A DNA stretch of 64,000 nt from Escherichia phage teqhad: sequence record NC_054933.1; one strand, 5' to 3'. The translations under genes and the position numbers were made by a program. The notes below the pieces were generated by a model. The model was not told where the DNA came from. It made no database searches and saw only the letters and a list, made by a program, of their open reading frames with translations. Positions 3,597 to 60,054 of the stretch are shown here, in pieces (positions within the stretch are counted from its first letter, which is position 1; each line of letters starts with the position of its first letter).

Positions 3597-3791
3597 TTAT
3601 TTGAATTGTGCAATTCTTTTCTCTAGACATTCAGCATAAGATTTCATTGAGATGAACTGTGAAAGTAACAGTTCTTGCTCAACTGCACTAACTGTTAGAA
3701 ACTTTGCGCTTTCTAAAAATTTACTCAGTGCATTAATTTTGAGCATTAATTGATCGTATTCTTCTTTTACTCGTGCTTGATAACCTAACAT
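3597..3791 (-). CDS. hypothetical protein (64 aa)
   Basis: ORF in track, flanked by UUCG hairpins. Confidence 0.5.
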   Translation of the reverse strand: MLGYQARVKEEYDQLMLKINALSKFLESAKFLTVSAVEQELLLSQFISMKSYAECLEKRIAQFK

Positions 3792-3807
3792 AATTTTCCT
3801 TAATGTG

Positions 3808-3826
3808 ATAAGGGCCGAAGCCCTTA
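3808..3826 (-). other. intercistronic UUCG-tetraloop hairpin overlapping the rIIB stop
   Basis: GGGCCGAAGCCC core with no U-tract; more likely an RNA-stability or processing hairpin than a terminator. Confidence 0.45.
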
Positions 3827-4762
3827 TTTAAATTGTTCAGTAACGTCTTCAACTACTTCGTATTGGCAGGTACGCATTTTAGCATCGTTGTAATCAATCG
3901 GAATTGATACTACATCACGAGGATGAACTTTAACTTTTACAACTCGGCTGGTTGAACTGCCAAAGTGACGAATATAAGATTTAGAACACACATGCAGACC
4001 ACGAGAACAAGTTTGTGTATCATCGTCATTCACACGAGTACGTGGCATTTTAACTACTTTACCAGGACTGTTATCAAAGGTGTTTGAGTGACAGTCAAAG
4101 TAATTGCTGCGAACTACTTTCCAAGCATAGAAGTAACCATCTTCTGTAATTTCAATATCGTTTGCTACCAAGAAATCAAAGAGTCGAGATACCGCTTTTT
4201 GGCTTGGGTTTTCCAGCAGATTTTCCAAGAACGGAAAATAAAATTCAAAGTTTTCGCCTTTTTCCATCGAATCAAGAATACGATCAACCAAACCAGACCG
4301 CAATTCAATATTTTGATAGAACAGGCTTCCACCTTCAATTCGAACATCGCCGGAAATATATTTTTCAACAGCGCGACGAACATTAATTTTTTGTGCCGCT
4401 TCTTCCAGCTTATCCGCTACAAGCAGATTGAGAATTTCCTGGAAGTTTGAATGAGTATTAGGTGTTGCATTATAAGTTACACCATCGACAGTAATCGAAA
4501 TGAATTTTTTAGATGCATTCCAAATAATGTCAGATTTAGTAACTGGAGCAATAACTGCATCGCTATTAACTTTAACTGTAATATCACCGCTAATAGTAAC
4601 TTTAGAGCGTTTAGCTTCTTCAGCATTTTTCAAAACACGACGGATTGTATCAACCGATACACCTTGCCAATCAGCCAATTCCTGCTGAGTATAATTACCG
4701 CTTGAATACAGTTTAACAATTTCAGCTTGTTCGTTTTTGGTCAGGCATTTAATATTGTACAT
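3824..4762 (-). CDS. rIIB: rIIB protein (312 aa)
   Basis: 312 aa, N-terminus MYNIKCLTKNEQAEIVKLY...; adjacent to rIIA as in T4. Confidence 0.9.
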   Translation of the reverse strand: MYNIKCLTKNEQAEIVKLYSSGNYTQQELADWQGVSVDTIRRVLKNAEEAKRSKVTISGDITVKVNSDAVIAPVTKSDIIWNASKKFISITVDGVTYNATPNTHSNFQEILNLLVADKLEEAAQKINVRRAVEKYISGDVRIEGGSLFYQNIELRSGLVDRILDSMEKGENFEFYFPFLENLLENPSQKAVSRLFDFLVANDIEITEDGYFYAWKVVRSNYFDCHSNTFDNSPGKVVKMPRTRVNDDDTQTCSRGLHVCSKSYIRHFGSSTSRVVKVKVHPRDVVSIPIDYNDAKMRTCQYEVVEDVTEQFK

Positions 4763-7190: not shown

Positions 7191-7220
7191 ATTATACCAC
7201 ATCCTTGTGGTAAAGTAAAC
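7191..7220 (-). promoter_or_regulatory. T4-type early promoter (overlaps the 3' end of gene 39)
   Basis: Minus strand GTTTACTTTACCACAAGGATGTGGTATAAT; near-identical copy at 54092..54121. Confidence 0.55.
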
Positions 7221-9037
7221 TACTGGCTCATCCATTCTTTGCGAAGGTCAGCATTATCTCCCATGAGCATTTCAAAAAGCTCTTTCCAGTTCTCAGGAAG
7301 TTTAACAACATCATATACTGGATTTTGAATCATCTCACGATATTCAGATTTTTCCAAAGAGCCAAGTCCTTTAATATAACGGATGCTATGTTTAGGTAGA
7401 GCATCTTTGGCACTCTCATATTCAGCGACTGTATAAAACCATTCTTGTTTTTTACCGACCTGAGCGATGATTACAGGAGTTTTGACAAAGCGAATTCGTC
7501 CTTGCTCAAACAATTCTGGCCAATTACTAAAAAACCCGAGCAGAGAAGGATAAATGCTTCCTAGACCATCATGGTCAGCATCAGTCATAATAGCAATATT
7601 ATGATAATTCAAGTTTTCAGCTTTTTCACCAAGAACTAATCCAGTGATTGCGCAAATATCAAACAGTTCTTTGTTTTTAAGCATATCAGCATATGACATA
7701 CCCCAGCTGTTAAGAACTTTACCACGCAATGGATAACCACCATGAAGTTCTTTATCACGAACATCAATAAGATATCCGATAGCAGAATCACCCTCAGTCA
7801 AGAAAAGAGTAGTATCAGCATCTTTACCGCAAAGATTCGCTTTGATATGTTTATGAACCTTAGCTTTAGAAGCCTTTTTAGCTGCTTTAGTTTCTGCTGC
7901 TTTTTCTGCTGCCAATTTACGAGCTAATGCTGCTTCAATAATTGGCATCAAAATTGCTTCATTATTTAGAATAGCGCGTGAAATCTTTTTAGCATCAAGT
8001 TGAATATGACTACGGATTTCACCAAATGGAGAAGTCAAACGCTCTTTAGTTTGAGAATCAAATCGCATGTTTTTCATATCACGAACAAACATAACGATAG
8101 TCAAACATTCTTTGACACGTGCTTTAGTTACATCAATTTTGAACTTACGTTTGATTTGTGGAATAAGGTCTTCACAAATATCATCCATAACACAGTCAAT
8201 GTGATGGCCACCATTCTTAGTGTGAATGTTATTCACGTAAGTTAATTGACGAAATCCATCCGGTGAACGACCAACCGCAATAGAACAATTTTCTTGTTCT
8301 TGAACGATAGCATGTTCATCATACTGTCGTGCATATTTCTTAAAATTGCCCTGAACCTTTTTACCATTAAAGGTAAATTGAATATCAGGATAAACAACAG
8401 CAAGTGTCTGGAGACGATCTAGCGTAATATCAAGATAAACTTGGGACAGCTCATTAGTTTCAAATGACATAAAATCAGGAATGAAAGTAACACGAGTTCC
8501 TTTCCATTTTCCAGGAATAGTTTCCCAGGATTTATTTTCCATGCCGTTTGAACAACGAACTACAATATTATTTTGACCATCGCCAGTTTCACCAACAAAC
8601 ATCACAGAAAAAATGTTTGTCAAACTAGAACCAACACCATTCATACCACCGGTGACGCGTTCTTTATCATCACCGAAGTTACCACCTGCTTTTGGAATAG
8701 TCCACGCAGCAACAGGACCAGGAATTTCTTCACCGGTAGGTGTTTTAACCATCGCTTGTGGAATACCGCGACCATTATCTTCAACTGTTACTTGATTGTT
8801 TTTAATAGTAACATTAATTTTATTTGCGAATTTAAACTTAGTACGAATACCTTCATCTACTGAGTTATCGATAATTTCATCAATAAGCTTAACAAGACCA
8901 GGTACATACTGAACACTTTCCCATTTACCAAACAGAAAGCGCTCATGCATTTCATTAGCAGAAGAGCCAATATACATGCCGCTACGCTTTTTGATATGTT
9001 CAATATCGCTCAGAATTTTAATTTCATTCTTAATCAT
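7220..9037 (-). CDS. 39: DNA topoisomerase II large subunit, uninterrupted (605 aa; equivalent to T4 gp39 plus gp60 as one ORF)
   Basis: Continuous ORF; ATG at 9037 with GAGGA SD; MIKNEIKILSDIEHIKKRSGMYIGS..., GyrB-like ATPase and TOPRIM. Confidence 0.9.
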   Translation of the reverse strand: MIKNEIKILSDIEHIKKRSGMYIGSSANEMHERFLFGKWESVQYVPGLVKLIDEIIDNSVDEGIRTKFKFANKINVTIKNNQVTVEDNGRGIPQAMVKTPTGEEIPGPVAAWTIPKAGGNFGDDKERVTGGMNGVGSSLTNIFSVMFVGETGDGQNNIVVRCSNGMENKSWETIPGKWKGTRVTFIPDFMSFETNELSQVYLDITLDRLQTLAVVYPDIQFTFNGKKVQGNFKKYARQYDEHAIVQEQENCSIAVGRSPDGFRQLTYVNNIHTKNGGHHIDCVMDDICEDLIPQIKRKFKIDVTKARVKECLTIVMFVRDMKNMRFDSQTKERLTSPFGEIRSHIQLDAKKISRAILNNEAILMPIIEAALARKLAAEKAAETKAAKKASKAKVHKHIKANLCGKDADTTLFLTEGDSAIGYLIDVRDKELHGGYPLRGKVLNSWGMSYADMLKNKELFDICAITGLVLGEKAENLNYHNIAIMTDADHDGLGSIYPSLLGFFSNWPELFEQGRIRFVKTPVIIAQVGKKQEWFYTVAEYESAKDALPKHSIRYIKGLGSLEKSEYREMIQNPVYDVVKLPENWKELFEMLMGDNADLRKEWMSQ

Positions 9038-9064
9038 CACTTATCCTCGTTTGGTTTCGGGAAT

Positions 9065-9090
9065 ATTATACTCCGGTAATCATAAAGCTA
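9065..9090 (-). promoter_or_regulatory. middle-promoter-like element (MotA-box-like AGCTTTA, 12 bp, TATAAT)
   Basis: Minus strand AGCTTTATGATTACCGGAGTATAAT upstream of gene 39. Confidence 0.4.
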
Positions 9091-9110
9091 AAGGCCCGAA
9101 GGCCTTTTAT
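9088..9110 (-). terminator. hairpin AAAGGCC-UUCG-GGCCUUU
   Basis: Overlaps the stop of the lipoprotein ORF; followed by U-rich sequence. Confidence 0.45.
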
Positions 9111-9376
9111 TTAAAACGGATAGTCGAATCTTTGAAGAATAGACCAGAACATACTGTTCCTTCTACTTTCTGCCCGGTAGGTCCAACAGCACGAAATCCA
9201 GTATGTTGGAAATCATTTTCAGAACAACCGAACCAATTATATCCAGTGATTTCAATATTAGTAAAACCACTTGAAGACAAAACTTTGGTTGCATTATCAG
9301 CATCAGTACATCCTACTAAAGACACTGTTAATACTAATGCTGCAATAGAACGATTAATATATTTCATAATTTTCAC
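9107..9376 (-). CDS. putative lipoprotein (89 aa)
   Basis: Signal peptide with lipobox ...LTVSLVGC. Confidence 0.55.
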   Translation of the reverse strand: MKIMKYINRSIAALVLTVSLVGCTDADNATKVLSSSGFTNIEITGYNWFGCSENDFQHTGFRAVGPTGQKVEGTVCSGLFFKDSTIRFK

Positions 9377-9744
9377 TTAAATTTAATGGCTTGAAGAAGA
9401 CTAATAATTCTCAAGCGACTTCTTTCATCTTTAACTGTAAAAGAAAGAGGGTCACCAGATTTCATAGTAATAGTACATTCAAAATCAAAATCTTCTGTGA
9501 CTTCTTCGAAGAAGTCAAATTCTTCAGCATAAATTAGAACATTACTCTGCATACTGTGAAGAATTTTTCCGTTATTTCCAGACGCTGTACTAATCATCGT
9601 AACATTATGACCTTTCATATCTTCAACGATAAATTCGCTTGTAGATATTACAGCATTAATAGAACCATTCCTATAAATAGCAGACATTAGATATTTCTTT
9701 TCTTCGCCTTCGCGAATACGATATTTCTTACCGATTTTAAACAT
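9373..9744 (-). CDS. hypothetical protein (123 aa)
   Basis: Track ORF 9373..9750 begins at GTG; the ATG at 9744 is preferred. Confidence 0.5.
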   Translation of the reverse strand: MFKIGKKYRIREGEEKKYLMSAIYRNGSINAVISTSEFIVEDMKGHNVTMISTASGNNGKILHSMQSNVLIYAEEFDFFEEVTEDFDFECTITMKSGDPLSFTVKDERSRLRIISLLQAIKFK

Positions 9745-9923
9745 AATCACCCTTTAAGTAAGTCGTAAAATCCGCCATTCACATGCTTAGGAGCAGAAGC
9801 CCGACGAGTAGACAAACGATGACATTTAGGGCAAACATCATTTTCTCGTTCAGAAATCTTTTTAATTTTTTCATATTCATGCCCGCAATCTTCGGATTGG
9901 CATTTATAATCATACATTGGCAT
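9744..9923 (-). CDS. zinc-ribbon protein (59 aa, CxxC...CxxC)
   Basis: Hand-translated MPMYDYKCQSEDCGHEYEKIKKISERENDVCPKCHRLSTRR...; not in track (<60 aa). Confidence 0.45.
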
Positions 9924-9925
9924 AA

Positions 9926-10351
9926 TTATTCCTTAAAATGAGCTTTCAGCATCTGATACAAGGACCATGCCTGTTCATTATTTTCAATAGTAACTTTCAT
10001 GACAGGAAATTCTGTGAAATCTTCTATTTGTTCTTGCTCTTGCTCTTCCTGCTCTTGCTCTTCAGCTGCCTGATATGGATTTTCCACTTCATCAAAGAAC
10101 TCAGCTTCGTTAGTAGAGAGCCAGATAAAGTTTTCGTCAAGGATATCACCATGTGTTGCATATCCAATTGTGCCAGTAAATGACATAATTTTAGTAGGAC
10201 GACCAAGATGGTCAACATCTAAAATTTTAAAAGGATGCATACCTAAACGTCGTGCATAAATTCCGTTATCAGTATGGTCTTTAATAAAAGCTTCTTGAGC
10301 TTGTTTATTTTTAAATTGATACCATTTATTAACTTCAAATTTAATAGCCAT
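9926..10351 (-). CDS. goF: GoF-like protein (141 aa) with acidic EQ repeat
   Basis: 141 aa, the size and position of T4 goF; contains [12 protein letters not shown]. Confidence 0.5.
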
Positions 10352-21575: not shown

Positions 21576-21776
21576 ATGGTACAAAAATTAATGGCACTTG
21601 TTAATGCCATCAAAGGTAATAAAAAGCGTATAGCTTTTACTATTTCTGCTATGGTAGGAATTTTACTCTGGAACTTTATTTTATCACCTGTTGCAATTGC
21701 ACATGGTATTAATATTCCAGTAGTTACTCTTGATACATTCGTAGATTTAGCATTTGCTTTAGTTGGGTTAATTTAA
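21576..21776 (+). CDS. small membrane protein on the plus strand (66 aa, two predicted TM segments)
   Basis: AAGGAGG SD 4 nt before the ATG; hydrophobic; convergent with gene 61. Confidence 0.45.
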   Translation: MVQKLMALVNAIKGNKKRIAFTISAMVGILLWNFILSPVAIAHGINIPVVTLDTFVDLAFALVGLI

Positions 21777-34600: not shown

Positions 34601-35560
34601 TCACTTCCACTGCATTTCACATGCTAATTGAATGAAAAGATAAGCTAAATGCAATTCAGTATTAGCTGCAATACCATGATACTGATTATTTTCGCCGACA
34701 ATTTCGTACATACGAATAATACTCTGTGGAGTTACACGTGAATAGATTTCTTCGGCAAGTTTACCCACGAACCACGAATAATCGGCTGCATATTTTGGTG
34801 CTAAAGCTCTGAGTTGTTTAACATCTTTATTTTTGAGAGACTCAAGAACATCATCAATAGCACCACGATCGTTAGTAACCAGTGATAAAATACCAGCATC
34901 CAAAACACCTTTAGATGAATAACTATCGAGCTCGCCAATAGTTTTACGAAAATCAGGAAAATTCTTTTTAACCAAAGCTGCTACAACTTTCATATCAGCT
35001 ATAGCAATTCCTTCATGCTTACAGATTTCAGTCAATCGACGAATCATCTGCTTCATCATTTCAATTTTATCTTCATCGGTCGGTTGACCGAATGTAATAA
35101 CTCGACAGCGTGACTGAAGTGGTTTAATAATACCATCAATATTGTTAGCAGTAATAATAATACTACAGTTTGAACTATAAGCTTCCATAAAGGAACGAAG
35201 ATGTCGCTGAGACTCTGCTAACCCTGAGCGGTCAAATTCATCAATAACGATTACTTTTTGACGACCATCAAATGAAGCGGCGCTGGCAAAATTAGTCAAA
35301 GGACCACGAACGAAATCAATTTTACAATCTGATCCATTCACAAACATCATATCAGCATTTACATCATGACACAATGCTTTTGCTACAGTTGTTTTACCTG
35401 TTCCTGGAGAAGGAGAATGAAGAATAATATGTGGAATCTTACCTTTACTTGTAATAGATTTAAAGGTTTCTTTATCAAAGGCGGGAAGAATACATTCATC
35501 GATAGTAGATGGACGATATTTCTGTTCAAGAATGTGTTCTTTTTCATTTACGGTAATCAT
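34601..35560 (-). CDS. 44: clamp loader large subunit gp44 (AAA+, 319 aa)
   Basis: Walker A GTGKTT; the second ATG follows GAGGAAATT. Confidence 0.9.
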
Positions 35561-35591
35561 AATTTCCTCATTCAAGTTTTAGTGTAAATTA

Positions 35592-35611: not shown

Positions 35612-36298
35612 TTAAAAATCGTGGGTAGAATCAGCTTCAAGAGCTACTACATAATTCGCATGTTCACCTTCAAATTTAGCAGCACCTTGTTTACCTTTTG
35701 CCCAGAGCAGAAGTTTATAATTTCCTGGTTGCATTTTCATATTTGCCATATTGATAATGAAATTAAATGTATTTTCACCATCATAATCACCAAGAGTCAA
35801 AGAATATTTAACACGGGTCAGAGCAGAATCTTCTACTTTATTAAAACCGTTAATTACGATTTTACCTTCTTTTACCGTGATAGCAATTGTATCAATTTGC
35901 AGACCACGAGATACACGCAACAGCTGTTGAAGGTCTTCAGCTTTAATTTCAGTAACAACAGATGCTACCGGGAATGGAATTGGTTTATTAGGAGCAACTA
36001 CTGTACTCGGATCGGCTGCTGGCCAAAAAATTGTTGAACGAGCATCAGCAATTTTAATATTTCCATCTTCTGACTGGGAAATTTCTGCATCATCATTAAC
36101 TAGAGACAGAATACCGAGAAAACCGTTCAAATCGTAAATTGCTACATCAAAATCAATAGTGTCAGAAATATTTGCTTCCGCATAAGTTGTACCATTAACT
36201 GCACGAGTCATAATAAATTGACCTGATTTAAGCATAATACCAGAGTTAATAGTAGCGAAATTTTTAAGCAGAGCAGTAGTATCTTTAGACAGTTTCAT
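35612..36298 (-). CDS. 45: sliding clamp gp45 (228 aa)
   Basis: 228 aa, MKLSKDTTALLKNFATINSGIM... Confidence 0.9.
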   Translation of the reverse strand: MKLSKDTTALLKNFATINSGIMLKSGQFIMTRAVNGTTYAEANISDTIDFDVAIYDLNGFLGILSLVNDDAEISQSEDGNIKIADARSTIFWPAADPSTVVAPNKPIPFPVASVVTEIKAEDLQQLLRVSRGLQIDTIAITVKEGKIVINGFNKVEDSALTRVKYSLTLGDYDGENTFNFIINMANMKMQPGNYKLLLWAKGKQGAAKFEGEHANYVVALEADSTHDF

Positions 36299-36353: not shown

Positions 36354-36743
36354 TTAACGATTAAAATCAGCCGCAATTGTTTCCGCAACAATTTGTGCAG
36401 CAACAATTAGACGTTCATCTGCATTACCGCAATAATCATCTTCAAGGCGTTCACCGCATGAAGTCATAATAAATTTAGCACCGGCGTTTAGGGATTCTGT
36501 AGTATGTTTGCGCATTAATTCAATCCATTTATTACTTACTTCACGATCGATAGCTTCATAATACGCATGACGAGCAGGTGCAGATTTAATTTTGTTCTGA
36601 ATAACTTCCATTGCATTATCAGAAAGAGACAAAACCCATGCTCGACGAATTTTATTTTGGTTTTGTGGATTTGATTCAGAACGCACGTGTTTTGGCTGAA
36701 TATCTTTTACATCAACAGTATAATTCACAGTAATTTTAGTCAT
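36354..36743 (-). CDS. rpbA: RpbA-like RNA polymerase binding protein (129 aa)
   Basis: 129 aa ORF directly downstream of gene 45. Confidence 0.65.
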
Positions 36744-36752
36744 AATACACCT

Positions 36753-36944
36753 TTAGTCATAATAATCAGTAACAGTCCAAGCTTCATTTCTATTGGACAT
36801 TATTTTTGTATATTCTGCTTTAAATGCATTCCTAAGCATAGATTCAGTAACTATATGCTCTTCATTAGAAAAATTATTTCTCAGAATATATCGTTTTATT
36901 TCAGGAAAAGTTAATAGATGCTGTCCGGTTGAATATTCTGCCAC
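36753..36944 (-). CDS. 45.2-like small protein (63 aa)
   Basis: Track ORF. Confidence 0.5.
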   Translation of the reverse strand: MAEYSTGQHLLTFPEIKRYILRNNFSNEEHIVTESMLRNAFKAEYTKIMSNRNEAWTVTDYYD

Positions 36945-36954
36945 AGTTCCTCCG

Positions 36955-36962
36955 TATAAATA
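36955..36962 (+). promoter_or_regulatory. late promoter TATAAATA (plus strand) upstream of the HNH endonuclease gene
   Basis: Exact TATAAATA 33 nt upstream of the ATG at 36996. Confidence 0.55.
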
Positions 36963-36995
36963 TGTTTATCACTCGCTGTATCAAAAGGATATGTT

Positions 36996-37712
36996 ATGAA
37001 TTATAAACTAATTTATGAAAAGTTAATCTCTAATGCTAAATCTCGAAAACTTGATTGCTATACTGAATCTCATCACATTATACCACGCTGTTTAAATGGC
37101 AGCGATGATGCTTCAAACTTAGTAGAGTTAACACCAGAAGAGCACTATGTAGCTCATCAACTTTTAGTAAAAATTTATCCTTCTGAACCAAAATTAGTCT
37201 ATGCTGCTAACATGATGACAGTTTCCACGAAATACGCTAAACGCAACAATAAAACTTTCGGTTGGATTCGTCGTAAACTCTGGGAAATAGAAAAGAACAA
37301 AGAATTCTCCCAGGAGACACGAAAGAAAATGTCTGATGCAGTAGCTAATAAAGCAAGACTAACTTGTCCTCATTGCGGTAAGTCTGGATTAAGCGGGAAT
37401 ATGAATCGTTGGCATTTTGATAACTGCCCAAATCACCCTAATCCTAAAGTTAGACCACCAATGTCTAAAGAACACAGAAATAATATCTCAAACGGACTTA
37501 AAGCAATCGTTCTTGAAGAAACATCCTGCGAATTCTGCGGAATGATAGGCAAGAAATGCGTTATCGCAGCGCATAGAAATTTCTGCAAGAAAAATCCAAA
37601 TGGACGCAAGAAAACTGAAAAGACTGGTACTTGCGTCCATTGTGGTAAAGTTACCACTTTCGGAAATTTATCAAGATGGCATAATGATAACTGTAAATAT
37701 AAACCTAGCTAA
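36996..37712 (+). mobile_element. free-standing HNH homing endonuclease gene (238 aa) on the opposite strand, with repeated CxxC zinc-ribbon motifs
   Basis: HNH motif ...ESHHIIPRCLNGSDDASNLVELTPEEHYVAHQ...; C-terminal repeats CPHCGKSGLSGNMNRWHFDNC and CVHCGKVTTFGNLSRWHNDNC. Confidence 0.8.
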
Positions 37713-39393
37713 TCTTAGCTAAACTAAATCTACCAACTTTTTCCATTTGAATATGCTGACCGTATTCTTGTGGGTCATGGTCTTTATGCGAAATTATGAA
37801 GAAGTTGGTATCCTTCAAACCATCTAAAATTTTAGCTACATTTTTAATACCTTCAGCATCAAATGCACCGTCATACACTTCATCAAGAAATAAACAACTT
37901 ATTTTAACACCTGAAACTTTTTCAGCAATATCACGCCAAGTAAATAAAAGAGCAATATCAATTCGTGCTTTTTCACCTTGACTGAATGAAGCATAACTAA
38001 AATCTTCACGACCACGGGATTTAATTGTCTCATTAAATTCTTCATCTAATGTAAACACATAATCCGCTTCCATTATTTTAAGATAATAATTAATCTGTTT
38101 ATTAAATAATGGAATGTACTTTTTAATAATAGCACCTTTAATACCAGAATCTTTGAGCATATCAGTCAAAATTCCTCGGTGGTATTTTTCCATTACTAAA
38201 TTAGTTTTTGTCTTAACAATTTTATCAAGTTCTTCTTGAAGCAGTGCTATTTCATCAGCATGGTCAATAAACTCAGAAGATGCTTTTTCTATAGCTGCTT
38301 TAACTTTTTTAGCTTTATCTACCGTCGTGATTAAGGATTGCTTTTTATTGCGAATATCATTTGCTAATGACTGTTGGGTTTTAATATTATCTCGGTATTC
38401 ATCAACAAGAACTTTTAAATTATCGCGATGCGTTGAAAGCTGTTCAAACGAATGCGTGCATTCAGAAACTTTATCTTTAATTTTAGAAACAACTTTATCA
38501 CCGGAACTTAATTGTGACAAACAGGTTGGACATAATCCACCTTCATGATACATATTAATGACTTTATTATACGAGTCAATTTTTGATTTAATTAAAACTG
38601 CTTCTTGACCGATTTTATTAAATGCATCAGTCGGGTCTTCGTCTAAAACAATATTAACTAATCTTTCATTAGCTTCTTCTATTTCTGATTTTAGCGTTCT
38701 AGCTTCTTTTGCCAAATCATCATACATATTTTGAAGACGAGTAAGGTTGTCACCAGACAATTTTTTCTGACGTTCAACATTATCATTATATATTTTAATT
38801 TGTTGGATAATACTATCTTTTTTAACATCAAGCACTTGGTTTTGTGAATTTAATTCACGTATTAGTGCTTTATTAAGCTTATCCATTTCAGCTAATGTTC
38901 CTACCTCAAGCAGGTCTTCCACAAGCTTTCTTCGTGCAGGGGTCGACAAACCCATGAAAGGGGTATACCCTGCTGTACCAAGGACAACAATCTGCTTGAA
39001 ACTGGCATATGACATTCCGATAAGCTGTTCAAATTCTGCTTGGAAATCTTTACTGCTGGCAGATTCATTAAGACGTGTACCGTTAACGGTGATTTCGAAA
39101 ACGTTTGGTTTTTGTCCTCTTTTGATATAGTACTTTTTCTCATCATATTCCATCCACAGTTCAACTAAAAGTTCTTTCTTATTTGTGCTGTTTATTAATT
39201 GACCTTTCTTTACATCACGAAATGGCTTGCCAAAAAGCCCAAACGTGATGGCTTCTAACATAGTAGACTTACCACCGCCATTTCGTCCAGTAATAAGAGT
39301 TTTTTGAACCTTATCTAATTGAATGTCAATAGGATTTCCACCTACTGACATTATATTTTGATACCTAACTCGGTTTAGTTTAAAATTCTTCAC
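37705..39393 (-). CDS. 46: recombination nuclease subunit gp46 (Rad50/SbcC-like, 562 aa)
   Basis: Walker A GRNGGGKST; coiled-coil middle; C-terminal signature/Walker B. Confidence 0.9.
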   Translation of the reverse strand: MKNFKLNRVRYQNIMSVGGNPIDIQLDKVQKTLITGRNGGGKSTMLEAITFGLFGKPFRDVKKGQLINSTNKKELLVELWMEYDEKKYYIKRGQKPNVFEITVNGTRLNESASSKDFQAEFEQLIGMSYASFKQIVVLGTAGYTPFMGLSTPARRKLVEDLLEVGTLAEMDKLNKALIRELNSQNQVLDVKKDSIIQQIKIYNDNVERQKKLSGDNLTRLQNMYDDLAKEARTLKSEIEEANERLVNIVLDEDPTDAFNKIGQEAVLIKSKIDSYNKVINMYHEGGLCPTCLSQLSSGDKVVSKIKDKVSECTHSFEQLSTHRDNLKVLVDEYRDNIKTQQSLANDIRNKKQSLITTVDKAKKVKAAIEKASSEFIDHADEIALLQEELDKIVKTKTNLVMEKYHRGILTDMLKDSGIKGAIIKKYIPLFNKQINYYLKIMEADYVFTLDEEFNETIKSRGREDFSYASFSQGEKARIDIALLFTWRDIAEKVSGVKISCLFLDEVYDGAFDAEGIKNVAKILDGLKDTNFFIISHKDHDPQEYGQHIQMEKVGRFSLAKIS

Positions 39394-39653
39394 AAAAGAT
39401 TCCTTTTAATGTATCTTTTAGACCATTCTATCATATCATCATAATCTAAAAAGTATTCATCAAATTCAGCCACGCAAACAACACCTTGTGCTGTTTTTGA
39501 TGTAATATAAATTATTCCAACATATCTAGAATCTTCTTCGGTATAATCAATATTTGCTATGAATTCATCATTAATGTCAAATGTCGAAAACTTCACAGTA
39601 TGCATCCTTAATACAAGATACAGCCATATCTTGTAATGATTTAGGTGTGTCAT
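39390..39653 (-). CDS. hypothetical protein (up to 87 aa)
   Basis: Track ORF; start codon uncertain. Confidence 0.4.
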   Translation of the reverse strand: MTHLNHYKIWLYLVLRMHTVKFSTFDINDEFIANIDYTEEDSRYVGIIYITSKTAQGVVCVAEFDEYFLDYDDMIEWSKRYIKRNLL

Positions 39654-39840
39654 TATCTAAAATGTTGAAGTTAAAAGATACAGCCCAGTCAGTGCAGACT
39701 GTAACCTTTTTAATACAATTATCTTCAACCTCTAGTGGTTCAAACCAATATTCAATAATTTCTTTATGCCCAATATCATCTTTTACTTCGCATTCAAAAT
39801 GCTGACTCATCATAACATTTTTAAATTCATCAAAAGTCAT
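39577..39840 (-). CDS. hypothetical protein (87 aa)
   Basis: Track ORF coupled to gene 47. Confidence 0.45.
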   Translation of the reverse strand: MTFDEFKNVMMSQHFECEVKDDIGHKEIIEYWFEPLEVEDNCIKKVTVCTDWAVSFNFNILDNDTPKSLQDMAVSCIKDAYCEVFDI

Positions 39841-40856
39841 TGTGTTGCCTCTACATATAACTGATTTGCATATTGAATAAGTGCTTCACGGTCAGAATCA
39901 GTGATGTCTGGAATTGCATTAATGTATTCTTCCATCAACGTCTGAAGAGATTGAACTTCAACTTCTTCACTGTCATCTGACTCGACAGAGTTATCAATCT
40001 TTGACACAACTCGTAATGAATGCACAACTTTTTCTAGTTCAGATTCGAACTTCGTCAGATTTTTGTCTACTTCAGTTACTATAACACGTACTGATAGATT
40101 TGTAAAATCTTTATAGTCAATTTTTCCTTTAAACGGATAATGAATTCTACGATGCCAGGTAGTATTGTTTGGAATAAATTCCATTCGTTCTGTTTCTGTA
40201 TCAAACATCCAGAACCCACGAGGGTCATTCTCGTCACCTGCTGTTAGTGTCCATGGTGTCCCAATATATCTGACGTTAGCAGCCTCAGAGATAGTATGGA
40301 AGTGACCAGACCACACCTCTTTATAAGTCTTAAGGAAATCAGGTTCAAGACCGTGAGATTTCATTCCTTTATAAAAATAAAATCCATTCAGTTCCCAGTG
40401 ACCAACACAAAAAGAAGCAGATGAAGTTTTGATGTGTTCAAGAATTTCACCAGTATTTTCTTCGCACATCCAAGGAATCAAATCAATCAAACACCCGTCA
40501 AAATCTACTGTAGTAGGCTTATCATACACTTTAACATTATGATATTTAGCCAAAAGCTCAGTAGAGGCATTTGGATGCATTACATTTTTGTAGTGGAGAT
40601 CGTGATTTCCTACAATAGTATGTAATGTGATTCCAGCGTCATCAAGCATTTGAACTATTTCACGGGCAAACTCCATAGTTTTATGCGTGATTGCTTTTCG
40701 CACATCAAAAATATCACCATATTGAATCCATACAGTAATTCCATTTTTCTTAGAATATTCTATCGCTTGCTTAATTCCATCAATTTGAATACCGCGAATC
40801 CACTCATCATCAGCTTTAACGCCTAAATGCCAATCACCCAAGTTTAGTATTTTCAT
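39837..40856 (-). CDS. 47: recombination nuclease subunit gp47 (Mre11/SbcD-like, 339 aa)
   Basis: Phosphoesterase motifs (GDWHLG, GNHD); 339 aa. Confidence 0.9.
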   Translation of the reverse strand: MKILNLGDWHLGVKADDEWIRGIQIDGIKQAIEYSKKNGITVWIQYGDIFDVRKAITHKTMEFAREIVQMLDDAGITLHTIVGNHDLHYKNVMHPNASTELLAKYHNVKVYDKPTTVDFDGCLIDLIPWMCEENTGEILEHIKTSSASFCVGHWELNGFYFYKGMKSHGLEPDFLKTYKEVWSGHFHTISEAANVRYIGTPWTLTAGDENDPRGFWMFDTETERMEFIPNNTTWHRRIHYPFKGKIDYKDFTNLSVRVIVTEVDKNLTKFESELEKVVHSLRVVSKIDNSVESDDSEEVEVQSLQTLMEEYINAIPDITDSDREALIQYANQLYVEATQ

Positions 40857-41618: not shown

Positions 41619-41635
41619 AAGGGCCGAAGCCCTTT
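41618..41635 (-). terminator. hairpin GGGC-UUCG-GCCC immediately 3' of alpha-gt
   Basis: AAAGGGCCGAAGCCCTTT. Confidence 0.45.
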
Positions 41636-42836
41636 ATTTTGTAATAATGTCAAACTGTTCTTTAAAGCAGAAGCTTGAATCTTGATGCTGATACAAAAAT
41701 TCATATGCTTTTTCTCGCTCACGGTCATAAAGAGCTCGGTCAGATGACAGTTCTTTAATACGCTCAAATGTTGATTCCATATCATTTTCATCAAACCAAA
41801 TGATACCGCTATCATGCGAGGTCAAAGGAGTATTATCAACACGGAATTTTAAATTTTCGCCAGTAGATTTCCAAAATACCGGAATTGTTCCACATGCACC
41901 AAGCTCGAGATGAGTATATTCTAAAGAACGTTGTAGATATTTTTTATCCAACTTACTCAACTGATAACCAAAACCGGATTTACTCATGCGTTCAAGCATT
42001 TCGCTATTTACATAACGATCAAGAATTTGCGTTGGCAAATTAGGAGCAATTTTAATTTGGTCTACTTGATGAAGACGATAATACTCGTATGGAATTCCTT
42101 TTTCTTTAATAGGAATGAACGCTGGAGAACGTTCCAGACCTTCCATAATAGTACTTAGTCCTGCAGGTTTAAGATGTTTTTCATGAAAATCAAACATCTG
42201 ATAAAAACCTTTCCATGTAGTCGTACGACCAATCCATCGGTTGACATTCATGTTAATTTCAGAAACATCTTTCCAGTAGGTTGACCGAACCTTCGCAATA
42301 TCCATAGGAGGCTGAAAGTTATATACGGTCGGCGCTTCTTCAATATCATCAAACAAAGAAACTGTTTCAGGATACCATTCTTTCATCAGAACTTTATTAA
42401 AATCGCCATTATCAGAATGACTAAAAATAACATCAGCTCGACGAACAGTTTCTTCTAATCCCAAATTTCGGCGCAAAGAAAGAGAAGAATGGTCATGTTG
42501 ATAAACTACAACACGAACCGAAGGTTTAATGTTATCAATAATTTTTTTATAGTTATTAATAGTGTCTTCTTCAACTGAAGTAGCAGGAACTGAATTGATA
42601 ATTAGAATATCACAATCATTTACCAGCTTAAGTGTTTTATCGTATTCTTTTGCCAATAAAACCGGAATTGAAAATGATTTATAATCATGTGCGCAATTAC
42701 GAGTAAATGATTTATCTTTAGCATAAACCAAAGTTACTTCATGACCATTTTTAATAAACCAATCACGTTGCTCAAGAGAAAATTTAGTTACACCACAACC
42801 TTCAAGACCTCGAGCCATAAAAATACATACTTTCAT
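41634..42836 (-). CDS. a-gt: DNA alpha-glucosyltransferase (400 aa)
   Basis: 400 aa, MKVCIFMARGLEGCGVTKFSLEQRDWFIKNGHEVTLVYAKDKSF... matches the remembered T4 alpha-gt. Confidence 0.85.
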   Translation of the reverse strand: MKVCIFMARGLEGCGVTKFSLEQRDWFIKNGHEVTLVYAKDKSFTRNCAHDYKSFSIPVLLAKEYDKTLKLVNDCDILIINSVPATSVEEDTINNYKKIIDNIKPSVRVVVYQHDHSSLSLRRNLGLEETVRRADVIFSHSDNGDFNKVLMKEWYPETVSLFDDIEEAPTVYNFQPPMDIAKVRSTYWKDVSEINMNVNRWIGRTTTWKGFYQMFDFHEKHLKPAGLSTIMEGLERSPAFIPIKEKGIPYEYYRLHQVDQIKIAPNLPTQILDRYVNSEMLERMSKSGFGYQLSKLDKKYLQRSLEYTHLELGACGTIPVFWKSTGENLKFRVDNTPLTSHDSGIIWFDENDMESTFERIKELSSDRALYDREREKAYEFLYQHQDSSFCFKEQFDIITK

Positions 42837-42887
42837 TTAATATCCTCATTGTTTTTGGTTTATTTTACCAAAAATTTATAAAGCAAT

Positions 42888-42907
42888 ATAGGAGCCGAAG
42901 CTCCTAT
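42888..42907 (-). other. hairpin GGAGC-UUCG-GCUCC
   Basis: ATAGGAGCCGAAGCTCCTAT upstream of alpha-gt. Confidence 0.4.
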
Positions 42908-43080
42908 CCGCATAATACGCCATACAAAGGCTCATTAGAGCTTCTAAATTTTATGCGCTTATATGTTATAGTTCCTTCTGCTTTAGCTTTATCGTAAGAC
43001 TCTTTAAAGCGTCTCATCATTTCTACTTTAGAGGAACGAATTTTATTATAATCTATTTCAGAAGTCTGGATGTTCATCTT

Positions 43081-43287
43081 TCATAACTGCCACCATTTTT
43101 TGACTTGATAAGAATCAACCCACACTTTCATATTAGGGTCTGCTCTTACAATAGGAGGATTAACTTCTTTAATTGAACTATCATGGTATTCTTTTTCAGA
43201 AATTTTCACACAAAGATGACCATTCAAAGATTCAGTAAATCCTGCATTAATTTTAAGACGCTTGAATTTTACGTGTGTAAGCATCAA
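43081..43287 (-). CDS. hypothetical protein (68 aa)
   Basis: Track ORF. Confidence 0.45.
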   Translation of the reverse strand: MMLTHVKFKRLKINAGFTESLNGHLCVKISEKEYHDSSIKEVNPPIVRADPNMKVWVDSYQVKKWWQL

Positions 43288-43570
43288 TCATATCCTCAAT
43301 TTGCGATCTAGTAGTCTTCCAAAGAATACTGATGAGTTCATCGTTATATGGCTGTTTTAGAATATCCCGACTTTTCTTGATAGCATATTCGTATTGAGCA
43401 AAATTATTGTTTTCAGCTGCGATCTGAGCGTGCTTATAAAGACGATTCAGTTCGCGTTTGTTTTTAGACAATAACTTATTTGCTTTTCTTTCTGCTTCAA
43501 GACGGTTCTTTTCTTCAATAGAAGAAATAAGCTTTTCCACTTCATCATTAATTTCGGGTTTATCAGTCAT
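43253..43570 (-). CDS. hypothetical protein (105 aa)
   Basis: Track ORF. Confidence 0.5.
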   Translation of the reverse strand: MTDKPEINDEVEKLISSIEEKNRLEAERKANKLLSKNKRELNRLYKHAQIAAENNNFAQYEYAIKKSRDILKQPYNDELISILWKTTRSQIEDMIDAYTRKIQAS

Positions 43571-47173: not shown

Positions 47174-47644
47174 TTAATCATGTTTCCACACCCCATCGGT
47201 ATTTGACCAAAGTCGCTGATTATCTGATCCTCGCCACAGCTTTTTAGTCGGAAGATTTTTCTCATACTTCCCATCAATAATAACATCAACATATTTAAGC
47301 ATTTCTAGTTGTTTAATATCTTCAAACTTATATCCTGTCCACAACCAAATGCTTTTATTGGGATAAAGATTTTTAATAGTTTGAACCACAGAGTGAATCA
47401 CGTCTCTGTTATCAGGATAAAGAGGGTCACCTCCGGTTATAGTCAATCCTTCTATATAATCATTATTCAAACATTCAATTAATTGTTCTAGTGTTTCACC
47501 AGTGAATGGAACACCATTTCTAGCATTCCATGTTGATTTATTATAACACCCTTCGCATTTATGCAAACAACCTGTAACGAAAAGAACGACCCTGCATCCA
47601 GGGCCATTCACAAAATCACAGGGATAAAATCTATCGTAATTCAT
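47174..47644 (-). CDS. nrdG: anaerobic ribonucleotide reductase activating protein NrdG (radical SAM, 156 aa)
   Basis: Cys cluster CLHKCEGCYN; 156 aa; 4-nt overlap with nrdD. Confidence 0.85.
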   Translation of the reverse strand: MNYDRFYPCDFVNGPGCRVVLFVTGCLHKCEGCYNKSTWNARNGVPFTGETLEQLIECLNNDYIEGLTITGGDPLYPDNRDVIHSVVQTIKNLYPNKSIWLWTGYKFEDIKQLEMLKYVDVIIDGKYEKNLPTKKLWRGSDNQRLWSNTDGVWKHD

Positions 47645-49458
47645 TGGTGTTTAACCCTATGCATGATTTCTTTATTTTTACCGAGATTAAATCCGCGTTC
47701 GTTCGGATTTCCCAAATAGCCGCATGTTCTTCTTATTGTGTTCATCTTTTTAGGATCAGTTTCTCCACAAATAGAACAAACAAATCCGTTTTCAGTAGGA
47801 GTCATTTCATGGGTACTTCCGCATGTAAAACACTTATCTACTGGCATATTAACACCAAAATAATCTAAATGCTGTGCAGCATAATCCCACACGGCCTCAA
47901 GACCTTTTAAGTTATTTTTCATATCAGGAAGTTCAACATAAGAAATGTGACCGCCGGTCGCAATGAAATGATACGGCGCTTCACGAGAAATCTTTTCAAA
48001 CGGAGTAATATTTTCTTCTACTGAAACATGGAAACTGTTGGTGTACCAACCTTTATCGGTAACATCCTTTACACTTCCATATTTTTCGGTATCAAGTTTA
48101 CAGAAGCGATAACAAAGGTTTTCAGCAGGAGTAGAATACAAGCTAAAAGCAAAACCAGTTCTTTCAGTCCACTGCTTAAGACGAGCATTCATTTTAGTTA
48201 AAATTTCTTGTCCAATATCACGACCGACAAGAATATTCAATTCGTGAATACCAATGTATCCTAAGGACACTGAACTTCTACCGTTTTTAAATAACTCAAT
48301 TATATCATCATCAGGTTTAAGACGAACCCCGAATGCACCTTCTTGGTAAAGAATAGGAGCAACAGTCGCTTTAACTCCTTTTAAGGAACTAATTCTACAC
48401 ATCAAAGCTTCAAAACATAAATCCATTCGCTCATTGAACAATTCGATAAATTTCTGTTCATTGAACTGTGTTCCAATATAAGAATCTAACGCGATACGAG
48501 GAAGATTCAGTGTTACAACACCGAGATTATTACGTCCATCAAGAATTTCATTACCAGTCGAATCTTTCCATACGCTCAAGAAACTACGGCAGCCCATTGG
48601 AGAAACAGGAACAGATGAACCAGTGATATCTTTATTGTTCTTAGCTGAAATAATATCAGGATACATTCTTTTGCTTGCGCACTCTAGAGCAAGCTGTTTA
48701 ATATCATAGTTCGGATCGTCTTTATAAAGATTAACACCTTCTTCAACAAACATAACAAGCTTAGGGAAAATAGGAGTTATCCCATCACGACCAAGACCTT
48801 TAATACGATTTTTCAGAATTGCTTTCTGAATCATTCGTTCAGTCCAGTCAGTTCCTGTACCAAATGTAATTGTTACAAAAGGTGTTTGTCCGTTTGAACT
48901 AAAGAGAGTATTTACTTCATATTCATAAGCTTGGAATGCATCGTATACATCTTTTTCTGTTTTAGATTGAGCATAATTCAACGCATCAGCGATTTGCCAT
49001 TTTTCTGCATCCTCAATATGTTTTGCATAGGTGCGTTTAACATAAGGAGAAAGTACTTTATCTACATTCGCAAAAGTCGTTCCGCCGTATTGGTGAGAAG
49101 CAACTTGCGCAGTAATTTGCGCCATAATTGCAGTAGCAACTCCAATTGATTTAGGAGTTTCAATCTGTGCATTACCTAGCTTAAATCCGTTCTCAAGCAT
49201 TCCTTTTAAATCTACTAAACAACAATTAGTAAATGGAAGAGCAGGGGAATAATCAATATCGTGGAAATGGATAATTCCGCTTTCATGCGCTTTCATAATA
49301 AAAGACGGGACCATATTTTTGGCAATGTGTTTAGACACAATACCAGCCATAAGGTCCCGTTGAGTTGGAAAAACACGAGAATCTTTATTAGCATTCTCGT
49401 TCAAAAGGTCTTTATTAGTTTTATGAATCAATCCTTCAATTTCTTTTTCAATTGTCAT
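47641..49458 (-). CDS. nrdD: anaerobic ribonucleotide reductase NrdD, uninterrupted (605 aa)
   Basis: C-terminal glycyl-radical region ...TCGYLGNP... and Zn site CxxC...CxxC; continuous ORF. Confidence 0.92.
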   Translation of the reverse strand: MTIEKEIEGLIHKTNKDLLNENANKDSRVFPTQRDLMAGIVSKHIAKNMVPSFIMKAHESGIIHFHDIDYSPALPFTNCCLVDLKGMLENGFKLGNAQIETPKSIGVATAIMAQITAQVASHQYGGTTFANVDKVLSPYVKRTYAKHIEDAEKWQIADALNYAQSKTEKDVYDAFQAYEYEVNTLFSSNGQTPFVTITFGTGTDWTERMIQKAILKNRIKGLGRDGITPIFPKLVMFVEEGVNLYKDDPNYDIKQLALECASKRMYPDIISAKNNKDITGSSVPVSPMGCRSFLSVWKDSTGNEILDGRNNLGVVTLNLPRIALDSYIGTQFNEQKFIELFNERMDLCFEALMCRISSLKGVKATVAPILYQEGAFGVRLKPDDDIIELFKNGRSSVSLGYIGIHELNILVGRDIGQEILTKMNARLKQWTERTGFAFSLYSTPAENLCYRFCKLDTEKYGSVKDVTDKGWYTNSFHVSVEENITPFEKISREAPYHFIATGGHISYVELPDMKNNLKGLEAVWDYAAQHLDYFGVNMPVDKCFTCGSTHEMTPTENGFVCSICGETDPKKMNTIRRTCGYLGNPNERGFNLGKNKEIMHRVKHQ

Positions 49459-58582: not shown

Positions 58583-59596
58583 TCATTTATAATAACTTCG
58601 GTGGTTTTCAAGATAGACCTTCTCAAGGAAGTCATCCCAGAAACCCATGTCTACTTTTTGCTGCATACCGTTCTTAGAAGCTTCAGTAGATGCTGCTTCT
58701 ACTTGATCGACCACATCTTCCAAAAACTTTTGAACCGTTTTAAATGGATGTTTACCCAACTTCACGTCGAGAATAAATGGAGCGTCTTGAAGTGGATAAA
58801 CCAAGTCACCAGTTTTGTAAATTTCCAATAGTTGAAGTCCACCACGACAAGCATGGCTCAGAGCTTTCCAGTCAATGCCTTCATTGGCTTCGGCCTTTCG
58901 AGCGCGTTCACCATATTCAGCATCTAATTTGTTCAGTGACTGCTTAAGCTCAATAAGAGAAAGCGTTGTCTGATATTTACGACCCAGCACTGTATAGAAC
59001 GTTTGTGGACCTGTTTTCTCATGATTATGGAACACCCATTCACAGAATTCGTTTTCTGGAAGACGATGCTTAATATCTTCAACTTTAGTACGACGCTGCT
59101 TAATGGAACCGTCTTCTTGGTAATCAACCCATTGCTCAGGGATTTGATTAACTACTTTCAATACATCACGTAATGCAGCCAAACGAGAACCCTTGACGCC
59201 GTATTTAGAAGCTTGCTTGCGGACATATCCTAAATAGGATTTCATGTTAGTCGTATAAAAACGAGAACGGTTGTCTTGAATAAACTTCCACACATCAGGC
59301 AAATCAGATTTAACCACTAGTTCAGGTGGAGTGTGAAGCATATCCAATGCTACAGTTTCACCATCTGCTGCTAATTTAAAGAAATATTTAAGACTGTATA
59401 GTTCATGGTCAATATCATCTTTAGTGTTTTTAGATGATGTGTTGTTAGTGTTTTTACTCATGTGCTCTTTGACATTTCCGACAAGAATATCGCGAGCAGG
59501 AGGAACAAAGATTTCTTTAAAATCTACATCAGATTCTGGGGTAGAAGTTCCATAAAGATGACTACCAAAATAGCTTTTCATTACTGTTTTCATCAT
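58583..59596 (-). CDS. predicted nucleotidyltransferase (Pol-beta superfamily, 337 aa)
   Basis: GS...DxD motif: FGSHLYGTSTPESDVDFKEIF. Confidence 0.6.
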   Translation of the reverse strand: MMKTVMKSYFGSHLYGTSTPESDVDFKEIFVPPARDILVGNVKEHMSKNTNNTSSKNTKDDIDHELYSLKYFFKLAADGETVALDMLHTPPELVVKSDLPDVWKFIQDNRSRFYTTNMKSYLGYVRKQASKYGVKGSRLAALRDVLKVVNQIPEQWVDYQEDGSIKQRRTKVEDIKHRLPENEFCEWVFHNHEKTGPQTFYTVLGRKYQTTLSLIELKQSLNKLDAEYGERARKAEANEGIDWKALSHACRGGLQLLEIYKTGDLVYPLQDAPFILDVKLGKHPFKTVQKFLEDVVDQVEAASTEASKNGMQQKVDMGFWDDFLEKVYLENHRSYYK

Positions 59597-60054
59597 TCAG
59601 CCTTATATTCAATAACAGGACATACTTTAGCTTTACGAGCTTTTAAAAATTCAACGATAATCGATTTCTTGGGTTGAATAGGAGGTAAACCTTTATTTTT
59701 CCTATCAATGTTTTCTACGTGTAAAGCATAATCCTTTTTCCATTTATAATCTTTATATTTTTCACGCAAATGTACAGGAATAACAAATGAACCAATAATA
59801 AGTAAAACAACCAAAAGCGCAAGTATAAATGCTGATGGAAGCAAAGTCCATAAACTACCAAAAATAAGCCAACGCTGTAAACTTTCTGCACAAATAATTG
59901 TTAGCCCTACGAGTATAGCACATCCAAAAATAGAAACGAAAAATGTAGGAATGGCAATAGACCAAAAATATGCGCATAGTGTCTTAGGTCGTTGCCATTC
60001 ATCGTTAAACAATTTGAATAATTTATAATGCCAAGAGTTTTCATTAATAATCAT
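59593..60054 (-). CDS. membrane protein (153 aa)
   Basis: Three hydrophobic segments; AAAGGA SD. Confidence 0.5.
   Translation of the reverse strand: MIINENSWHYKLFKLFNDEWQRPKTLCAYFWSIAIPTFFVSIFGCAILVGLTIICAESLQRWLIFGSLWTLLPSAFILALLVVLLIIGSFVIPVHLREKYKDYKWKKDYALHVENIDRKNKGLPPIQPKKSIIVEFLKARKAKVCPVIEYKAE

Follow-up and report, generated by a model that had tools for sequence, protein, structure and literature searches.

A probable free-standing Mob-type HNH homing endonuclease gene on a 786-bp cassette between genes 45.2 and 46 of T4-like phages

Between genes 45.2 and 46 of Escherichia phage teqhad lies a gene for a protein of 238 residues that is very probably a free-standing, Mob-type HNH homing endonuclease gene (HEG), carried on a cassette of 786 bp. 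It was examined in a 64,000-nucleotide stretch of sequence record NC_054933.1 (the window), a segment of a T4-like (Tequatrovirus) genome in which transcription lies almost wholly on the minus strand. T-even phages are the group where free-standing homing endonuclease genes were first described, and the present gene is already known, having been annotated in public genomes since 2006. In RB32 it is RB32ORF054w (ABI94878.1), a 'putative site-specific intron-like DNA endonuclease, similar to mobB', and the copies in RB33, slur07, Aplg8, fFiEco06 and others bear the RefSeq label 'homing endonuclease'; RB32 has been credited with two mob-like HEGs (PMC2993671, Table 5). RB32ORF054w and the RefSeq copies are this very gene, 98–99% identical in nucleotide sequence, with site, orientation and gene 46 overlap all unchanged; nothing of substance sets RB32ORF054w apart, and its annotation is by similarity only. 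Our literature search found no experimental paper on cleavage, homing or transcription of an endonuclease at the 45.2/46 junction. The gene is an ordinary selfish homing endonuclease gene between two conserved T4-like genes, and to this extent the original prediction, made from the sequence alone, interpreted it correctly. The coordinates of the locus are given in Table 1.

Table 1. Features at and around the 45.2/gene 46 junction, in window coordinates
Feature	Position	Strand	Basis
gp44	34601-35575	-	ORF list; name from T4 and RB32 records
gp45	35612-36298	-	ORF list; name from T4 and RB32 records
rpbA	36354-36743	-	ORF list; name from T4 and RB32 records
45.2	36753-36944	-	ORF list; name from T4 and RB32 records
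Inserted cassette, 786 bp, replacing 72 bp of endonuclease-free relatives	36939..~37724		BLAST + MAFFT
Cassette-borne 45.2 start, GTG + extra Ala codon	36939..36944	-	MAEYS here vs MEYS in T4
T4-type late promoter consensus TATAAATA, exact, 33 nt before ATG	36955..36962	+	Sequence
Shine-Dalgarno AAGGA, 6 nt before ATG	36985..36989	+	Sequence; conserved in MHG19 and G2469
Homing endonuclease ORF, 238 aa, ATG start	36996..37712	+	ORF call, family matches, homologue search
HNH core E24-H54: beta strands 24-27 and 42-45, then helix 47-60	37065..37157	+	
CCHC zinc finger 1 (C124, C127, H140, C144)	37365..37427	+	Sequence + AF2 element 121-143
Candidate MotA-type middle promoter, ATTGCTTTA-N13-TATTAT, antisense within ORF	37480..37507	-	Regex
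CCHC zinc finger 2 (C178, C181, H193, C197), divergent	37527..37586	+	Sequence + AF2 element 175-197
CCHC zinc finger 3 (C213, C216, H229, C233), family-invariant, common to T4 MobE	37632..37694	+	Sequence, AF2
Cassette-borne gene 46 tail + stop	37705..37724	-	...GRFSLAKIS* here vs ...GRFTVMV* in T4
gp46	37705-39393	-	ORF list; name from T4 and RB32 records
Endonuclease-linked divergent block, 176 nt, gene 46 3' end	37725..37897	-	Carrier/non-carrier comparison
Codon ATT (Ile) in CAT-ATT-CAA-ATG, candidate immunity position	37750..37752	-	Codon scan
46.1 and 46.2	between gp46 and gp47	-	Names from T4 and RB32 records
gp47	39837-40856	-	ORF list; name from T4 and RB32 records

A plus-strand ORF of 238 aa between 45.2 and gene 46 had been proposed, and the ORF call agrees; position 36955, from which the feature was then counted, is that of the late promoter, and the ORF itself begins at 36996. 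The convergent overlap with gene 46 that had been read at 37705..37712 is likewise correct, since the minus-strand stop of gene 46 lies at 37705–37707, and the last 8 nt of the endonuclease ORF overlap this stop and the final two codons. In other phages that carry the gene an overlap of 4–14 nt with gene 46 is conserved. No minus-strand gene in the ORF list overlaps the body of the endonuclease ORF. The description of the gene as the only substantial one on the plus strand needs qualification: it is the only long one, but there is a second real plus-strand gene, of 66 aa, at 21576–21776. This short gene matches phrog_2024 (unknown function; E = 1.4e-31), converges on the primase gene and has an annotated same-strand counterpart in phage Ac3. 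The remaining plus-strand ORFs of at least 100 aa are probably spurious antisense artefacts; three of them sit within longer minus-strand ORFs, the ORF at 8976–9380 overlies minus-strand ORFs, and neither this one nor that at 176–526 has a PHROG family match.

The reading of the product as an HNH endonuclease is upheld by its motif residues, by homology to the T4 Mob proteins and by a match of the 238-aa protein to PHROG 655 'homing endonuclease' (E = 1e-68). The HNH string ESHHIIPRCLNGSDDASNLVELTPEEHYVAHQ occupies residues 24–55 of the ORF. A homologue search with the protein returned 2281 sequences at E ≤ 0.001 and, across 43 homologues of 34–64% identity, the HNH residues E24, H26, H27, P30, G35, N41, H50 and H54 are invariant, as are C213, C216, H229 and C233 of the terminal finger; the HNH catalytic residues are therefore present on alignment. 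Over the N-terminal 75–120 residues identity is 44% to T4 MobB, 37% to MobC, 53% to MobD and 43% to MobE. The HNH region of the IscB model matches the endonuclease at E = 2.7e-5, and residues 23–43 align with positions 14–34 of the Pfam HNH profile (PF01844), a match that falls below the cut-off at 17.3 bits against a gathering threshold of 21.4. An AlphaFold2 model of the protein (mean pLDDT 91.3) has the beta-beta-alpha fold around the HNH motif, followed by helical linkers and strand-strand-helix units at residues 121–143, 175–197 and 210–232. When searched by domain it gave weak but specific structural matches to GVE2 HNH, Cas8-HNH, IscB and zinc-finger arrays; searches with the full model gave no significant whole-chain fold match.

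Each of the strand-strand-helix units bears a C-x2-C...H-x3-C ligand set, with the spacing C-x2-C-x11-12-H-x3-C, so the protein has three CCHC zinc fingers. Duplicated zinc repeats had been described from the sequence; the CxxC fingers are real, but there are three of them and it is fingers 1 and 3 that form the similar pair. The protein thus combines a Mob-like N-terminal domain with a C-terminal half of its own, and its gene stands free between conserved genes, outside any intron or intein. The ORF is intact in all 12 loci examined and dN/dS among close copies is 0.015–0.12, values which together favour a working protein over a decaying relic.

The limits of the insertion were established by aligning (BLAST, MAFFT) eight carrier loci with 15 non-carrier loci, namely T4, T2, T6, RB14, wV7, PP01, sb4, KAW1E185, Manna and six IMG/VR contigs. 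This comparison of the junction across T-even genomes, which had been suggested as a check, returned sharp boundaries at 36939 and ~37724: homology to non-carriers ends at 36938 and restarts at ~37725, and the junctions are identical in every one of the eight carrier loci. In T4 the spacer between 45.2 and gene 46 is only 55 nt, in keeping with the earlier statement that T4 has no gene there. Besides the endonuclease ORF, the 786 bp contain the late promoter and the ends of both neighbouring genes. The cassette supplies the start of 45.2 together with its ribosome-binding site, and the resulting MAEYS N-terminus recurs in the Mosigvirus carrier G2469, there with an ATG start; it supplies the tail and stop of gene 46 as well. 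The cassette also removes a middle-promoter match of the T4 spacer, TATGCTTTA-N12-TATAAT (MotA box/-10). A candidate middle promoter within the ORF, reading from 37507 to 37480 on the minus strand, is kept in six other carriers. The regular expression used is too loose for this embedded MotA-type promoter to be considered reliable, having 13 matches in the window of which five are on the plus strand, where almost no gene is transcribed, and we treat it as a lead only.

Population counts were taken from a phage-record collection, in which 580 records match the locus and 58 hold the cassette at ≥95% identity. Carriers thus make up 58 of ~503 Tequatrovirus records (11.5%), the site being empty in the other ~445. 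Of ~155 Mosigvirus records, 14 (~9%) have a diverged allele at this position, RB69 itself being empty, and a scan of IMG/VR added six further loci, all non-carriers. Homologues at the same site and in the same convergent arrangement occur in Yersinia phage MHG19 (an unclassified Tevenvirinae phage; 63% identity), Mosigvirus G2469 (57%), Pseudotevenvirus PF-CE2 (44%) and Klebsiella phage Squirrel (42%). The gene is therefore far from universal in T4-like phages, carriers being a minority, and the suggestion of a mobile insertion accords with its precise presence or absence in ~11% of Tequatrovirus and ~9% of Mosigvirus. Such patchiness, at ~10% in each of two genera and combined with precise junctions, is classically characteristic of homing endonuclease genes.

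The late promoter consensus TATAAATA is found exactly where it had been reported, 33 nt upstream of the ATG. It is depleted in the window, with four occurrences against 10.4 ± 3.3 in shuffled sequences, so that a copy correctly placed before the sole long plus-strand ORF is unlikely to be due to chance. The full consensus is conserved upstream of homologues, at -44 in MHG19 and -54 in Mosigvirus G2469; the two most distant homologues retain TAAATA only. These sequence features support a late promoter belonging to the endonuclease gene itself, from which the late sigma factor of the phage would transcribe the gene late in infection. Earlier expression would not be expected, because the gene is antisense to the surrounding early and middle transcription unit. 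No intrinsic terminator was found on the plus strand between 36300 and 38300, downstream of the endonuclease ORF, and late transcripts would therefore run antisense into gene 46.

Two further forms of control were considered and rejected. An I-TevI-type operator was sought by comparing 36939–36998 with the T4 empty site; the best ungapped match was 14/20, and 111 of 200 shuffles did equally well or better. RNA structure masking the ribosome-binding site, as in I-TevI, SegB and Aeh1 MobE, was sought in 36968–37040, where the predicted fold has -7 kcal/mol (z = -0.45); such masking would be unnecessary here, since early transcripts cannot read the gene. The leader (36963–36995) contains a motif, TATC-N6-7-(C/T)ATC(A/G)AA, that is kept in homologues with only 42–63% protein identity; this motif does not resemble the empty site and is not predicted to form RNA structure. 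Elsewhere in the window, a second plus-strand TATAAATA lies at 9672–9679, within the minus-strand ORF 9373–9750, and the only plus-strand ORF near it is one of 52 aa at 9783–9941.

Carriers and non-carriers also differ beyond the cassette, in a short block at the 3' end of gene 46. Divergence between the two groups is 0.20–0.31 in this block compared with ~0.01–0.05 in the left flank (gene 45, rpbA and 45.2), where divergence between groups is about that within groups and there is no differentiation. The fixed differences in gene 46 end at 37896, and the block comes in three forms: carrier, T4-type and T2-type. It covers what we take to be the Walker B motif (LDEV), the H-loop (ISHKDH) and the C-terminus of a Rad50/SbcC-like ATPase. 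The carrier form is present at ≥95% identity in exactly 58 of 50,697 phage records and in none at 90–95%, the next band being 80–90%; linkage between block and cassette is therefore complete or nearly so.

Within the block, the marker codon on the minus strand at 37750–37752 is ATT, ATC or TTG in 12 of 12 carrier loci, which include all carrier lineages sampled, and CTT or CTC in all 15 non-carrier loci readable by the codon scan. Between RB69 (empty) and G2469 (carrier) this codon is the sole change near the right-hand junction. The Mosigvirus change from CTT to TTG is synonymous and takes two substitutions, which suggests selection on the DNA and not on the protein.

T4 MobE provides the model for these observations: it nicks nrdB a short way from where mobE is inserted, and sequence differences at that point are believed to shield the carrier genome (PMC2790892). 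The marker codon and flank pattern match that model, and on this basis we predict that the target lies in the last ~15 codons of gene 46, possibly at the junction itself. The target position is put forward as a hypothesis, as physical proximity alone could yield the linkage of a 176-nt block, and a single acquisition followed by ordinary recombination fits the shared right-hand boundary of the Tequatrovirus carriers as well as repeated homing does.

The protein has an HNH (beta-beta-alpha-metal) nuclease domain at its N-terminus, which helical linkers connect to three CCHC fingers that would read the DNA. In a mixed infection with a cassette-free relative, the enzyme would make a nick or cut in the empty allele, at or close to the final ~15 codons of gene 46 and around CAT-CTT-CAA-ATG, and recombinational repair off the carrier genome would then copy in the cassette along with adjacent gene 46 sequence. 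Two changes would shield carrier genomes from their own enzyme, namely the replacement of one side of the site by cassette sequence and the base differences in the adjoining gene 46 block. A Mob homologue cannot simply be taken to be active, as PMC2988022 (Table 1) names no target gene for T4 MobB, MobC or MobD.

A more ambitious proposal, which we offer tentatively and at rather less than even confidence, is that one endonuclease lineage has tracked the last ~15 codons of gene 46 across several Straboviridae lineages, that immunity in every carrier lineage lies largely in one codon (CTT susceptible; ATT, ATC or TTG in carriers), and that the three-way hypervariability of the 3' end was left behind by repeated invasion and co-conversion. 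If this were true, the target of an uncharacterised three-finger HNH enzyme would have been predicted by sequence comparison alone.

The region 37725–37925 exists in three sharply different forms (carrier, T4/T6 and T2/RB14) among genomes that are otherwise 95–99% identical. The protein of the T2/RB14 form closely resembles the C-terminus of Mosigvirus gp46 (...DSATD.EG.KAISTIL.SL...SHRDHDPQAYGQH), and there are hints here of a past inter-genus exchange at the gene 46 3' end. In T2, T6 and PP01, which are without the cassette, another gene annotated as a homing endonuclease lies immediately upstream of gene 46, on the minus strand, in the place of 46.1 and 46.2 of T4 (locus positions 3934–3987 in T2, 3696–3987 in T6 and 3694–3985 in PP01). 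The mobile nuclease gene beside gene 46 thus varies from one T-even phage to another.

Other explanations of the locus must be weighed against an active homing endonuclease. The nuclease may no longer home, the cassette being kept because the phage depends on the parts it carries, that is, the 45.2 start and ribosome-binding site, the gene 46 tail and stop, and possibly a replacement promoter for 45.2, rpbA and gene 45. The cassette does bear those host-gene parts, it displaces the middle-promoter match of the T4 spacer and has a candidate replacement within the ORF, embedded host promoters are a recognised route to retention of T4 seg and mob genes (PMC2988022), and all Tequatrovirus carriers have one right-hand boundary in common. 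We nevertheless think this unlikely, because low dN/dS and intact ORFs in every copy point to selection on the protein itself, the catalytic and zinc-binding residues are invariant, and the embedded promoter match is weak, 5 of the 13 window matches being on the plus strand. The protein might instead act mainly as a weapon of exclusion that damages the essential gene 46 of co-infecting relatives, its own copying being incidental. T4 is known to exclude T2 partially by means of endonucleases (PMC2993671), defence genes derived from HEGs are known in other phages (PMC10448857), and the predicted target is in an important replication and recombination gene. The same cut would yield both outcomes, so that sequence cannot separate exclusion from homing, but a cassette that is precisely present or absent at a single site, and this in several phage lineages, bears the mark of copying and not of killing alone, and we judge a primary role in exclusion to be quite improbable.

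That the ORF is a chance antisense frame, or encodes an HNH protein with a role other than as a nuclease, is the least plausible of these readings. AT-rich phage DNA does yield antisense ORFs, such as those at 8976–9380 and 35621–36037 in the window, but a frame of that sort would hardly be accompanied by 2281 homologues and strong family matches, a confident fold, purifying selection and freedom from any overlapping minus-strand gene, and we consider the idea effectively refuted already. A mobile, Mob-type homing endonuclease gene accordingly remains our preferred reading.

Among characterised enzymes the closest to the window endonuclease is T4 MobE, with 43% identity over the N-terminal 120 residues and a C-terminal CPHCGK...RWHxDxC finger common to both (RWHYDKC in MobE); in the T4 reference record this terminal finger of MobE is in a different reading frame and annotated as nrdB.1. 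The mobE gene is also free-standing, between nrdA and nrdB, and its product acts on a neighbouring conserved gene (PMC2790892). MobE differs in having a single such finger, with NUMOD3-like repeats instead of the other two. Furthermore, mobE has no promoter and is transcribed together with nrdA from the same strand, an internal terminator limiting the transcript (PMC2790892), whereas the window gene runs antisense to the genes on either side, is preceded by a late-promoter consensus of its own and occupies another locus. MobB, MobC and MobD of T4 share the HNH N-terminus (37–53% identical) and the free-standing, sporadic habit, but their C-terminal halves are unrelated and their genes lie on the same strand as their neighbours. 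The opposite orientation is shared with T4 segD, located between genes 23 and 24 (PMC2988022); SegD is of the GIY-YIG family, and no segD-specific promoter was found (PMC2988022), in contrast to the exact late consensus here. I-HmuI, the HNH nicking enzyme of SPO1, has a similar plan of HNH domain, linker and modular DNA-binding region (PMC2790892), but it is intron-encoded, uses other DNA-binding modules and is absent among the structural matches listed.

The differences from the T4 paradigms are hence the opposite strand with its own late promoter, the three-finger array and the locus. The opposite-strand late consensus sets the gene apart from the majority of T4 seg and mob genes, whose orientation is that of the genes around them. 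Beyond annotation the gene matters little, being one more free-standing homing endonuclease gene already labelled in public records. It has modest value as an uncharacterised family member with three CCHC fingers, natural carrier and non-carrier pairs in two genera, and a specific target predictable from sequence in the essential recombination-nuclease gene 46. As the targets of MobB, MobC and MobD are unknown (PMC2988022), the window gene, once characterised, would provide a second well-defined Mob enzyme besides MobE.

The copy in phage Ac3 (OK040907.1) was set aside. From 31,961 to ~35,250, a block comprising the endonuclease gene, gene 46 and ~850 bp beyond has 40–51% GC, against 30–38% elsewhere in the Ac3 genome, and its left edge is exactly the endonuclease ATG. 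Compared with the window, 137 of 237 endonuclease codons are synonymously changed with only five non-synonymous changes, and gp46 has 351 synonymous and 14 non-synonymous differences. Leucine in the block is encoded by CTG or CTC only, arginine by CGT or CGC only and glycine by GGC or GGT only, and there are many switches between TCN and AGY serine codons. By megablast the block matched no other phage record and no complete E. coli genome. We rejected the interpretation of a natural divergent allele, as the E. coli-optimal codon set looks artificially recoded, and the Ac3 copy was therefore not used as evidence for natural co-conversion.

Several smaller features of the window may be noted. 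The mechanical ORF for 46.1 has 87 aa (39390–39653, minus strand) and its PHROG family match covers residues 20–87 only; the true start codon probably lies further in, for a product of ~68 aa as in T4. Four stretches of the window (7220–9040, 41634–43570, 47174–49458 and 58583–60054) bear on other differences from T4. The window phage is without mobB, mobC and mobD at their T4 positions and without the nrdD intron with I-TevII, and no further endonuclease gene was noticed in passing. Its topoisomerase large subunit is encoded by a single ORF of 606 aa, in contrast to the split 39/60 of T4.
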